From the IMG/VR virus record IMGVR_UViG_3300030943_000118: a stretch of DNA of 31,625 nucleotides; one strand, given 5' to 3'. This document shows positions 1 through 31,625 of this stretch, piece after piece; the stretch's first letter is position 1; each line of letters opens with the position of its first letter. The position numbers and the translations under genes were made by a program. Origin of the DNA: a virus. The notes beneath the pieces are model-generated. The model saw only the letters and a program-made list of their open reading frames with translations, was not told where the DNA came from and made no database searches.

Positions 1-127
1 TCGGGATAGACGATCATGAAGTTGATGTCTCTGCCGGTTGTGGCTGTCTTGGCATAGCCCCATGTTGACGCACCGTCATTCAGGGTGACCTGCGTATAGA
101 ACCGCGAAGCAGGAACGAACGTAACGA
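1..127. repeat. terminal direct repeat, identical to 31499..31625 (circular or terminally redundant genome; unit length 31,498 bp)
   Basis: Seen in sequence: the first 127 nt (tcgggatagacgatcatgaagttgatg...gaacgaacgtaacga) are repeated exactly at the window end. Confidence 0.95.
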
Positions 128-10042: not shown

Positions 10043-10672
10043 TTATGCCTCCGGTTCTTCTTCCTTTATGGCCTTTGTCATTTGTTCAAGTGTCCTTCGG
10101 GCTGCCTCGATCTGCAGAAGAGCGGTTTCAACTTCTACCGGGCATTTTCGTTCGAGGCCCTTATCAATTTGCTCCGCCATTTCGTCGGATCTCCAGACGT
10201 GTATGTTGTGCTTGCTTAAAACCGCCTGAATGTCTTTTATAATCTGCTGATAATCCCCGTTTCTTGACAAACGTTCATTTTCTGTTTGCAATCGGCCTAT
10301 TGTCTGCGCCAATTTTGAAGAAAATATGCGCCCGATGCTGTGCTTTTCGGCGGTATCTGCGATATAGTCGTTGATATATTCTTTTTTGTCGTTGTGAAAC
10401 GGGTATCTGTCTGGCTGCATCCGGTACATCAGGATGTACCAGAGGACATCGGGGTCTGGTACCATCTTCCGGTATTCAGCTTTCTTTTTAGTCTGTAGCT
10501 GCTTTGTTTCAGAGTTGTACCAGATAAGGCCCATGCTGTCGGGTATCTCCCGCTTGTCAATCATCTTCGCTGGGCAGACAACATAGAACTCATGGAAGTA
10601 CTGAAGATATAGGTGCATTTTCGAATCCCGCAAAAAATCCCCTCGGCTGATCTTGATTTCATAACCGGTCAT
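10043..10672 (-). CDS. nuclease-like protein (PD-(D/E)xK-type motif GYEIKISRGDF), segment downstream of an in-frame TAA
   Basis: 209-aa ORF with no RBS before its ATG; it is in the same frame as the 35-codon ORF 10718..10825, which has a proper RBS. Family guess (MmcB-like) is from motif recall only. Confidence 0.6.
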   Translation of the reverse strand: MTGYEIKISRGDFLRDSKMHLYLQYFHEFYVVCPAKMIDKREIPDSMGLIWYNSETKQLQTKKKAEYRKMVPDPDVLWYILMYRMQPDRYPFHNDKKEYINDYIADTAEKHSIGRIFSSKLAQTIGRLQTENERLSRNGDYQQIIKDIQAVLSKHNIHVWRSDEMAEQIDKGLERKCPVEVETALLQIEAARRTLEQMTKAIKEEEPEA

Positions 10673-10714
10673 TGTTTGATGCGCCCAGCTTTTATTTATA
10701 GCTACAGCATCTAC

Positions 10715-10825
10715 TTATAACATTCCGGTTTGTGTCGGGCCGTTCTTTACCTCAGCCATGAAAAAATCATGAAAATGCCGGTCGGCCAGCGCCTGCTTGA
10801 TTTGTCCTGATGTGACCTCGCTCAT
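10715..10825 (-). pseudogene. 5' segment of the same nuclease-like gene, ending in an in-frame TAA at 10715..10717
   Basis: ATG 10825 with GGGGGT 8 nt upstream, 15 nt after the SSB stop; MSEVTSGQIKQALADRHFHDFFMAEVKNGPTQTGML-stop, then VDAVAINKSWAHQT-MTGYEIK... continues in frame. Confidence 0.4.
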
Positions 10826-10839
10826 ATACTTATTACCCC

Positions 10840-11247
10840 CTACAAGTCAAATGGAAGAGTCGTATCATCATCCATAACCGGGTAGACTCCATTGTCTACT
10901 GTTGGCGCGACGGGTCTCGGTGCTGACTGCTCTTTTGCTTTTCCATTGCAAAACTCAAACGATTCAACAACCAAATCAGTGACGTAAACCTTGCCACCGT
11001 CCTTGTCGTACGATCTTGTCTGCAGATCGCCCTCGACCATGATTTTGTCGCCCTTAGCAAAATACTGTGCGATCAGTTCAGCGGTCTTTCTCCATGCGGT
11101 ACAGGTAAACCAATCCGTCTGCTTCTCTCCGCTTGCGTCCTTAAATTTGCGGGTACAGGCAATGTTGAATGAGCAAAACGGGATCTGTGACGCTGTTGTC
11201 TTGAGTTCAATATCTTTTCCGATCGTTCCGATTCCGTAAAATTTCAT
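10840..11247 (-). CDS. ssb: single-stranded DNA-binding protein
   Basis: OB-fold-like core (WFTCTAWRK...GDKIMVEGDLQTRSYDKDGGKVYVTDLVVESFEF) and an acidic C-terminal tail ending DDDTTLPFDL. Confidence 0.85.
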   Translation of the reverse strand: MKFYGIGTIGKDIELKTTASQIPFCSFNIACTRKFKDASGEKQTDWFTCTAWRKTAELIAQYFAKGDKIMVEGDLQTRSYDKDGGKVYVTDLVVESFEFCNGKAKEQSAPRPVAPTVDNGVYPVMDDDTTLPFDL

Positions 11248-11257
11248 AAAATCCTCC

Positions 11258-11473
11258 TTAATATTCTGCTGCTGTTCCTTTTTGAGCGTCTTTATCCATC
11301 AGTTCCTTGAGCCATTCACTTTCGATATCCGGCTTGAATCTTGATTTGTCTTTGTCCCTGTTGGGTCTGTCCTTGCAATCGGCGCAGTTTGTGTATCTTA
11401 TCTCGCTTAGAATCAGATATCGGCCATCCATGCAACCGGCGCACTTTGTCCCCTTTAACCGACCGTCAATCAT
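11258..11473 (-). CDS. small zinc-finger protein (71 aa, CxxC...CxxC)
   Basis: Start overlaps the 3' end of the upstream ATPase gene. Confidence 0.5.
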   Translation of the reverse strand: MIDGRLKGTKCAGCMDGRYLILSEIRYTNCADCKDRPNRDKDKSRFKPDIESEWLKELMDKDAQKGTAAEY

Positions 11474-12380
11474 TTATTAAGTCCCTCCATGCGTACCGAA
11501 TCTCCTGACCGTCGCAGGACATCTGTTTGCTTTGTCTGTCAAAAAACAGATCGGCCATTTTGTCCATCACTCCCAGATCCCTGTTTTTGGCAACCTCTAA
11601 AATATTGCTGCACTGTAACAACGTGTGATCTTCGGGCCAGCGAAACAATGTTTTTGCGCATCTCTTAAAATCACTGCTCACTCTGTGAAGTAAAAATACA
11701 TTGTCTGCAGCATTGGTAAGATCAGCGGTGCCGGATATGTCGTCAATTCTCAAGATCCCCGATTCCGTTTTTCGAGGATGAGCAACAAGAACGATATGAA
11801 CATTTGTTTCTTCTGCAAACTTTTTCAAATTCCAAATAAACTCTGTCTGTTTCGCGTTTCGGTTTGCGTCCGATGCTCCAATGTCTATGCTCATCAGATT
11901 ATCCAGGATGATCACATCAACGCCCTTTACCTCCACGCAGTGCCGCAACATCCCAAAAAGTACATCTAGCTGATTCCCGTAATTGTTGTTGTAAACAAAC
12001 ATCCGCTGATCCAGCCACTGTTTGATCGGAGTCACAACCTCCTGCATTACTTTGAAGTAGTTTTCGTGTTTTGTTGCCAGGGTGTAAGATCTTCCTGCGG
12101 CTAACAGGTATGTCCATTCAAAAACCCTTGACTCGTTCATCTCTCCGGAAAACAGAGCCACCTTTTTATTTTCCTGTACTACCTGCAAAGCTATCTGCGT
12201 TAAGATTGTTGACTTGCCTGCTGCGCGAAATCCAGAGAATACAGACATTTCTTTTTTGTTCAGCCCAATGATCCACTTATCAATCAACCAGATGCCTGTT
12301 TTTATTGACACGATCTGGCTTCGGTCTTTGGGCTTTGCGGTCATGCTTGTAAAAAACCACTTGCCTTTATCCTCGTTCAC
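11466..12380 (-). CDS. DnaB-like replicative helicase / RecA-fold ATPase
   Basis: Walker A GFRAAGKST, Walker B VIILDNL; 304 aa; sits between the replisome organiser and SSB. Confidence 0.65.
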   Translation of the reverse strand: MNEDKGKWFFTSMTAKPKDRSQIVSIKTGIWLIDKWIIGLNKKEMSVFSGFRAAGKSTILTQIALQVVQENKKVALFSGEMNESRVFEWTYLLAAGRSYTLATKHENYFKVMQEVVTPIKQWLDQRMFVYNNNYGNQLDVLFGMLRHCVEVKGVDVIILDNLMSIDIGASDANRNAKQTEFIWNLKKFAEETNVHIVLVAHPRKTESGILRIDDISGTADLTNAADNVFLLHRVSSDFKRCAKTLFRWPEDHTLLQCSNILEVAKNRDLGVMDKMADLFFDRQSKQMSCDGQEIRYAWRDLIND

Positions 12381-13072
12381 AAATCAAAGCCCCCTCCTGC
12401 ATTTTTTATCGGTCCTGCCTTTTTTCCACCGCCTTGGTTCAGATACCCCTCAAACTTATTTGAAAACAGTGTTTCCGGTCTCAGGTACTTTTGCATGTCG
12501 GTTCCAGACCATTCAGCAACCTTGACATCGATAACCGTGTAAAAGCTTTCGAGGGTAAATTTTTCATTCATTCTCGCTTTTATCAGGTCTTTGGTTTTTT
12601 GAGAGGTATGCATATAAGATGTTCCGGCTTTCAAGTTTAAGTAATCAACAATGGTTCTGTATGGCAGTCTTTCCTCTCTCTCTTCACTCTCTTTCTTATC
12701 TATAGTTTCAGTTTCAGTTTCAGTTTCCATATGTTGAACATATGATTTACATGTGTTTAACATATCTTTATCATGTGTACCCTTTTTACTTGCTCTGTTC
12801 TCGCTTCTGCTCTCCGAATAGGCAATTCTTCTGTTTGACTCCTTTTCGAGCTTGATGTTGAAGTACAGCCCGTTTTCATCAATTTTGAAATGTTTGTAAA
12901 TGTCTTTATCATATGATTTACACATCTTCAACATATCTTCTTCTGATAATCGCCCGTTTTGATGCTCGTAACACATGATCCTTATGTACTTTCCGACCTG
13001 TTCGTCCGTCATTAACATCGTTCCAGACAAAAAGTCAGAAGTATAAAATAGAAATGCAGGATCTTTTGCCAT
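12377..13072 (-). CDS. replication initiation protein (replisome organiser, DnaD-like C-terminal region)
   Basis: 231 aa; C-terminal LPYRTIVDYLNLKAGTSYMHTSQKTKDLIKARMNEKFTLESFYTVIDVKVAEWSG resembles the conserved C-terminus of phage replisome organisers (from memory); contains internal DNA and protein repeats. Confidence 0.6.
   Translation of the reverse strand: MAKDPAFLFYTSDFLSGTMLMTDEQVGKYIRIMCYEHQNGRLSEEDMLKMCKSYDKDIYKHFKIDENGLYFNIKLEKESNRRIAYSESRSENRASKKGTHDKDMLNTCKSYVQHMETETETETIDKKESEEREERLPYRTIVDYLNLKAGTSYMHTSQKTKDLIKARMNEKFTLESFYTVIDVKVAEWSGTDMQKYLRPETLFSNKFEGYLNQGGGKKAGPIKNAGGGFDL
12705..12947. repeat. iteron-like repeats inside the replisome organiser gene; candidate origin of replication
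   Basis: Seen in sequence: four tandem GTTTCA/GTTTCC hexamers (12705..12728); 13-mer CATATGATTTACA at 12739 and 12910; 10-mer AACATATCTT at 12759 and 12930; both pairs spaced 171 bp, AT-rich. Confidence 0.4.
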
Positions 13073-31338: not shown

Positions 31339-31625
31339 TCAAGTCGTGCTCTTGTGGAGATACACGCCCTTGGCCTTGTTCTCATACACGAATGCATCGT
31401 GATACAGGAGGAACTGATACAGCCAAGAATCCTTGATCTGGTTTGTGTCCGGATCAAAGACTTTAGGGATGATGAACTTGGGAACCTGCACAACAGCCTC
31501 GGGATAGACGATCATGAAGTTGATGTCTCTGCCGGTTGTGGCTGTCTTGGCATAGCCCCATGTTGACGCACCGTCATTCAGGGTGACCTGCGTATAGAAC
31601 CGCGAAGCAGGAACGAACGTAACGA
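31339..31625 (-). CDS. major capsid protein, 3' part (31499..31625 duplicates 1..127)
   Basis: In-frame continuation of the ORF that starts at 728; ends ...YENKAKGVYLHKSTT, stop TGA at 31339..31341. Confidence 0.7.
   Translation of the reverse strand, partial: VTFVPASRFYTQVTLNDGASTWGYAKTATTGRDINFMIVYPEAVVQVPKFIIPKVFDPDTNQIKDSWLYQFLLYHDAFVYENKAKGVYLHKSTT
31499..31625. repeat. terminal direct repeat, identical to 1..127
   Basis: Exact 127-nt identity seen in the sequence. Confidence 0.95.

Follow-up and report, generated by a model that had tools for sequence, protein, structure and literature searches.

A role in DNA-damage (mitomycin C) tolerance has been reported for MmcB of Caulobacter. 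Proteins of the MmcB-like type (PF06319, formerly DUF1052) are about 150 residues long and lack the C-terminal helical region, of about 125 residues, that is found in the phage proteins described here. DUF1052 has been catalogued among the PD-(D/E)XK families and PF06319 is mostly alphaproteobacterial (PMC3424549), whereas the phage family occurs mostly in phages and prophages of Bacillota. Beyond that 2012 PD-(D/E)XK survey, our search of the literature on MmcB and DUF1052 found nothing. Among phage proteins, the best profile match to the product studied here is phrog_5429, annotated as 'DNA repair protein'. This group includes gp32 of Anoxybacillus phage A403 (YP_009837570), which carries the same annotation and is 35% identical over residues 3-251. 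Like the gene described below, the gp32 gene belongs to a replication/recombination module, where it adjoins a Holliday-junction resolvase. The 'DNA repair' label of phrog_5429 is an annotation carried over from MmcB. The phrog_5429 genes are intact, unlike the copy described here, and its interruption also sets it apart from the other MmcB-like/PF06319 proteins with which it is compared.

In-frame stop codons within conserved coding sequence are also encountered in phage readthrough and recoding, as in the UGA of Q-beta A1 and in gut phages with recoded TAG or TGA. These known cases involve UGA or UAG, and the codons are conserved among relatives or affect many genes; recoded phages moreover carry suppressor tRNAs. 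A second precedent is the ordinary nonsense or frameshift decay of accessory genes in phages and prophages.

The DNA analysed, hereafter the window, is the whole 31,625-nt virus record IMGVR_UViG_3300030943_000118 of IMG/VR. Because an exact 127-nt direct repeat lies at its ends (1..127 and 31499..31625), the window is probably a circular assembly (k=127 signature) and a complete genome of about 31.5 kb. It carries a cI/Cro-like HTH pair, and no integrase was noticed. On the minus strand, an ATG at 10825..10823 opens a frame of 36 sense codons (MSEVTSGQIKQALADRHFHDFFMAEVKNGPTQTGML) that runs into a TAA at 10717..10715; beyond it, 223 further in-frame codons (VDAVAINKSWAHQTMTGYEIK...) lead up to the TAA at 10045..10043 (Table 1). 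An earlier note on this DNA had described two ORFs in one frame split by a single TAA, and its coordinates, strand and frame were all confirmed.

The interrupted gene sits in a replication/recombination module, after the genes for an ERF recombinase, a DnaB-like helicase and SSB. This last, immediate neighbour (10840..11247; PF00436 in public gene calls) ends in a TAG at 10842..10840, and 14 bases separate this TAG from the ATG. The ATG thus starts at the 15th base, at the distance previously given. The Shine-Dalgarno-like GGGGGT overlaps the SSB stop codon by one base, its first G (10840) being the final G of the TAG; at the corresponding position the closest relative, L008, has AGGAGGT. The ATG of the downstream ORF, at Met52, has nothing comparable before it, in line with the observation that only the upstream ORF has a ribosome-binding site.

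Table 1. Features of the interrupted nuclease gene; positions are those of the window.
Feature	Position	Strand	Remark
Shine-Dalgarno-like GGGGGT	10835..10840	-	ahead of the gene's ATG; read from the sequence
N-terminal 36 codons (MSEV...TGML)	10718..10825	-	helix 1 and strand 1 of the predicted PD-(D/E)xK domain
Glu25, nearly invariant	10753..10751	-	within the N-terminal 36 codons
Lys27, invariant	10747..10745	-	within the N-terminal 36 codons
Premature TAA (ochre), codon 37	10715..10717	-	CAA in the two closest relatives
Remaining nuclease domain, residues 38 to about 135	10421..10714	-	holds Asp39, Glu56 and Lys58
Catalytic-motif Asp39	10711..10709	-	downstream of the premature stop
Catalytic-motif Glu56	10660..10658	-	downstream of the premature stop
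Catalytic-motif Lys58	10654..10652	-	downstream of the premature stop
Met52, first in-frame ATG past the stop	10670..10672	-	no Shine-Dalgarno site
Internal TTG (Leu65)	10631..10633	-	preceded by GAGGGG with a 5-nt spacer; start used by public gene callers
C-terminal mainly helical region, residues about 136-260, with one long helix	10046..10420	-	AF2 model
Natural TAA terminator of the gene	10043..10045	-	homologues end at the equivalent place

Is this one gene or two? The read-through product, 260 aa long, is a full-length member of a family whose proteins are single chains of ~260 aa. A search of the protein collection found 32 relatives, nearly all of 252-282 aa and covering 89-100% of the query; the exceptions were P0002, a 196-aa call from the window phage itself, and P0029, from the frameshifted locus L025. 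When deposited phage genomes were searched by tblastn with the read-through product, single ORFs were found over residues 3-251. The phrog_5429 profile aligned with residues 1-121 in one stretch across the stop (E 2e-23, and 4e-17 with the downstream ORF alone), with its positions 1-31 covered by the upstream 36 codons. The upstream 36 residues match the N-termini of all homologues in the alignment, and 34 of them are identical in P0001, an intact relative. Since the homologues are single ORFs and the upstream residues match their N-termini, 10043..10825 (-) holds a single gene. The earlier note had described one gene interrupted by the TAA, and had named two findings that would speak against it, namely two separate genes in homologues and upstream codons with no similarity to homologue N-termini. 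The homologues proved to be single ~260-aa ORFs, and the upstream 35-36 codons match them.

What does the gene encode? We built an AF2 model on P0001, which is 77% identical to the window product, from a 28-sequence alignment (mean pLDDT 79; first 120 residues mostly 84-96). The nuclease part of the model comprises a helix (6-16) and three strands (21-27, 37-43 and 52-57) followed by further alpha/beta elements, and has the alpha-beta-beta-beta-alpha-beta core of the restriction-endonuclease-like fold. Asp39, Glu56 and Lys58 are invariant and Glu25 nearly invariant among the 28 homologues; the arrangement is that of the PD-(D/E)xK catalytic motif, with the Asp on strand 2 and (D/E)-x-K on strand 3. 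The family profile finds the MmcB-like structure 3DNX (SPO1766, Ruegeria pomeroyi), the nearest solved structure, over the YE-x-K-x-SR-x-DF segment. The C-terminal region, modelled with lower prediction confidence, consists of helices 147-155, 159-205, 213-225 and 230-250 and has weak coiled-coil-type matches at best among PDB sequences. The protein would thus be a PD-(D/E)xK nuclease of MmcB-like type with an added C-terminal helical domain, and conservation of the motif points to a metal-dependent phosphodiesterase activity. The nuclease-like identity first proposed from the DNA alone was upheld by alignment to nuclease families, which gives the MmcB-like PD-(D/E)xK fold.

The relationship to PF06319 itself is distant. 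Of the 19 sequences that make up alignment A1 (the window product with 18 relatives), five match PF06319, at a best E of 3.9e-9, and the match is also precomputed for relatives P0022 and P0030. The window product has no Pfam match at E<=1 and falls below the PF06319 gathering threshold. Judged by sequence, the phage family does not clearly belong to PF06319 and appears to be an outlier or a distant sister of it. Two other assignments were rejected: the NCBIfam family sce7726 scored below threshold (34.5 bits against a cutoff of 70), and three intact relatives gave no PADLOC match that would place them in an anti-phage defence family. In a genome scan, the family turned up chiefly within Bacillota prophage regions (Oscillospiraceae, Lachnospiraceae, Paenibacillus, Bacillus and others), and the host of the window phage is probably a member of Bacillota.

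In the AF2 model, strand 2 begins at the residue that the stop replaces, and the invariant Asp39 comes two codons later. Glu25 and Lys27 are therefore cut off from Asp39, Glu56 and Lys58, and the claim that a PD-(D/E)xK motif is split by the stop holds, with the two former residues on one side and the three latter on the other.

How did the stop codon arise? The aligned codon is CAA (Gln) in both closest relatives, L008 (P0001, 77%) and L009 (P0003, 56%), in which the flanking codons are otherwise near-identical. Because both have CAA, the stop results from a single C-to-T transition on the coding strand, CAA to TAA, at window base 10717. A comparison with related phages at this codon had been proposed, and it yielded this sense codon in both. 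Among the 28 homologues, position 37 is Q in 15, I in 9, K in 2, L in 1 and V in 1, all sense codons. The stop is not conserved in diverged relatives: every aligned relative at 31-77% identity has a sense codon, and the TAA is confined to clonal copies of the window phage. The locus thus has the features of a nonsense pseudogene, a one-base change from a sense codon in a genome that uses TAA as a terminator. A related phage with an intact gene (P0003, L010; 56%, CAA) shares JGI sample 3300030339 with the window phage (L021). In the P0003-bearing phage, the gene follows a 139-aa ORF without a Pfam match, not the 135-aa SSB gene.

A sequencing error was one of the origins considered in the earlier note, and the assemblies speak against it. 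We fetched 17 further loci of the window phage, which derive from several samples and from JGI, ENA and Logan assemblies, and each one has the TAA. Fifteen of these 17 are 100% identical to the window, with a longest match of 12.2 kb. The sole substitution among them is in the ENA contig L018, at window 12299 (A in the window, T in L018; minus-strand bases), within the DnaB-like helicase gene (11466..12380). The other ENA contig that differs, L015 (19.7 kb), does so only in the repeat number of a tandem array (see below). The 36-aa ORF is indexed on at least 24 contigs, and the 196-aa product, too, is listed for many contigs of JGI, ENA and Logan origin.

An artefact in the broader sense would be a sequencing or assembly error, or a majority call at a polymorphic site, the functional phages having CAA. 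It would be in keeping with the facts that all contigs probably come from the samples of one project, that some Logan and ENA assemblies may reuse JGI reads, and that the base is known from assemblies, not from reads. Against this, the base is identical in at least seven JGI metagenome assemblies and in those of Logan and ENA, which are independent and were produced by other software, and no 260-aa variant at >=90% identity was found in the 15-billion-protein collection. We regard such an artefact as very improbable, and error as the source of the TAA is effectively excluded. Scans of IMG/VR proteins and DNA found no near-identical genomes with CAA, and the phage GenBank collection gave no DNA-level relative. 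Two scans of the metagenome_contigs collection were likewise negative, but carry no weight, since the samples in question are evidently absent from it. The TAA-bearing contigs probably come from one study site. As they are all ~100% identical and clonal, they provide no evolutionary depth; they attest to a real and dominant allele, not to its maintenance over evolutionary time.

The array that varies in L015 (16326..16663) consists of 22.5 copies of a 15-bp unit, TCTGCGCGGCTGAGG, with 86% matches, and lies in about 1 kb without a publicly annotated gene, between a methyltransferase/small-ORF block and the DUF1351/ERF recombination genes. It is about 100 bp longer in L015, so its copy number varies between assemblies, and it may represent either a replication origin of iteron type or sequence coding for pentapeptide repeats. 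A second, short AT-rich tandem repeat at 12724..12778 (11/22-bp period, 2.5-4.6 copies) lies inside a 231-aa gene with a Phg_2220_C domain (12377..13072).

How long has the stop been there? Compared with L008, at a synonymous divergence of about 0.7-1.3, dN/dS is 0.03 for the upstream 36 codons and 0.05 for the downstream nuclease part; the C-terminal region evolves faster than the nuclease domain (0.23). The low dN/dS on both sides of the stop indicates strong purifying selection for nearly all of the time since divergence from L008. No further lesion is present in the interrupted gene. A very recent stop and a gene still in use both fit the data, but a recent stop needs no special mechanism.

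Other damaged copies of the family were found: (i) among 80 genomic loci, in a prophage of Paenibacillus campinasensis 7537-G1 (L063:1501-2268; NZ_NPBY01000061.1), the TGG of the conserved Trp47 has become an independent in-frame TAG (KKS*ANPC) and the remaining ORF is intact; (ii) in L078 (Paenibacillus qinlingensis), the frame is lost after the nuclease domain and the Arg of the SRxDF motif is changed to His; and (iii) in L025:965-1467 (Logan SRR21487927), a frameshift follows ...KKRAVYRN, in a single contig, so that it may be a sequencing error. In light of these copies, occasional inactivation of this accessory gene is ordinary for the family. The window gene resembles ordinary decay in that one transition has occurred in an otherwise intact gene. 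It differs in that the broken allele is the only one recovered, in many samples, and belongs to a circularly assembled, apparently complete phage.

Can the stop be decoded? In bacteria, both release factors act on UAA, the least leaky of the stops, and UAA followed by G is not a leaky context. The base after the stop is indeed a G. The 161 nt around it fold no better than shuffled sequence (z -0.41), giving no sign of a stimulatory RNA structure, and no slippery site lies beside it. ARAGORN found no tRNA gene in the whole circular genome, and a phage-encoded suppressor tRNA was rejected on this ground. The locus thus shows none of the marks of programmed readthrough, be it a leaky context, an RNA structure or a phage suppressor tRNA. 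With a UAA that is not conserved and no phage tRNA, it is also without the features of the known readthrough and recoding cases. A frameshift or ribosome hopping was likewise rejected, as homology resumes in frame at once and the alternative frames close soon, the +1 frame at a TAG two codons past the TAA (AAG TAG) and the -1 frame at a TAA nine codons beyond.

Functional readthrough would nonetheless mean that the TAA is decoded at low frequency, by a near-cognate tRNA-Gln, tRNA-Lys or tRNA-Tyr or by a host ochre suppressor, giving a little full-length nuclease and possibly keeping a potentially toxic enzyme low. Three observations fit: the ORF beyond the stop remains intact and conserved (dN/dS 0.05), several residues are tolerated at position 37 in the family, and the TAA allele is the only one seen across many samples. 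An intact downstream ORF is, however, equally expected after a very recent mutation, and no diverged lineage (relatives at 31-77% identity) retains the stop. With the tightest bacterial terminator in a context that is not leaky, no downstream RNA structure, no phage tRNA and a TAA that normally terminates many genes here, we consider functional readthrough unlikely. The sequence around the stop offers no signal in support of the readthrough suggested in the earlier note.

Two equally speculative ideas have a slender probability. The ochre codon might attenuate expression if it is partly suppressed: with Gln, Lys or Tyr inserted by a host suppressor or by near-cognate decoding, at a position that takes many residues, a trace of an otherwise toxic nuclease would still be made. 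Or the knockout might have been positively selected and have swept all samples, hypothetically because a host defence system recognises the nuclease.

A change of the genetic code is effectively refuted. TAA replaces Gln here, the residue that reassigned TAA/TAG specifies in some alternative codes, and a phage or host that reads TAA as an amino acid would account for the interruption. Yet TAA, TAG and TGA all end long ORFs in the window, about one third of the long minus-strand ORFs ending in TAA, the interrupted gene included. No internal stop was found in any other gene of the window, and there is no suppressor tRNA. We know of no TAA reassignment in bacteria or phages. In the other same-frame pairs of neighbouring ORFs, each member is an ordinary gene with a start codon of its own; as TAA is a normal terminator and these pairs are ordinary genes, there is no sign of stop-codon reassignment, and an alternative code was rejected.

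Could translation restart beyond the stop? Reinitiation at Met52 (10672) or at the TTG at 10633 would give a truncated protein that keeps a non-catalytic role through its C-terminal helices. The ATG of Met52 lies 45 nt past the stop, the TTG of Leu65 is preceded by GAGGGG at a 5-nt spacing and was the start chosen by gene callers, and in the model the C-terminal helices form a unit of their own. However, Met52 has no Shine-Dalgarno site ahead of it, and GAGGGG is encoded by the conserved SRGDF motif and so is a by-product of the coding sequence. The restarted products would begin inside the nuclease fold, without strands 1-2 or 1-3, and would probably misfold according to the model. A start at Met52, called in one Logan assembly (P0033; same cluster as P0002), gives a 209-aa product without Glu25, Lys27 and Asp39; a start at the Leu65 TTG gives a 196-aa product (P0002, P0034) without any catalytic-motif residue. 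Only three short gene calls occur among the homologous proteins found, two from the window phage and one from the frameshifted L025 (P0029). A functional truncated protein is, in our judgement, quite improbable.

The reading we prefer, and hold to be highly probable, is a recent CAA-to-TAA nonsense mutation that inactivated a dispensable MmcB-like nuclease gene of a Bacillota phage. Nonsense inactivation was among the options first listed for this gene, and it is the best supported of them, given a CAA-to-TAA change in a standard-code genome without a suppressor tRNA. In the lineage of the window phage, codon 37 changed from CAA (Gln) to TAA, as the comparison with relatives shows. Ribosomes starting from the good ribosome-binding site would make a 36-residue peptide and then terminate. 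Products restarted at Met52 or Leu65 would lack Asp39 or the whole catalytic motif, and as they would be without this metal-binding residue or the entire motif, nuclease activity would be lost or nearly lost. The gene would be dispensable, since it is the mutant phage that assemblies of many samples have yielded. Finally, the absence of a second lesion and the strong purifying selection on both halves relative to the nearest relative suggest that the mutation is recent.

Three points weigh against nonsense inactivation: (i) the rest of the ORF is perfectly intact, which is expected also if the gene is still used; (ii) position 37 is variable, so that rare readthrough would probably insert a residue that the protein tolerates; and (iii) the contigs are clonal, and bear on the reality of the base, not on gene loss over evolutionary time.

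The significance of this finding is mainly for annotation. In place of two hypothetical proteins, as in the public gene calls of 36 aa and 196 aa, there should be a single merged entry for an MmcB-like nuclease gene, flagged as interrupted. For the family, the interrupted copy suggests that a widespread phage nuclease is dispensable for phage persistence in a natural setting; at least three more copies are likewise broken. Should the knockout have been selected or the stop be suppressed, this would point to a cost of the nuclease.
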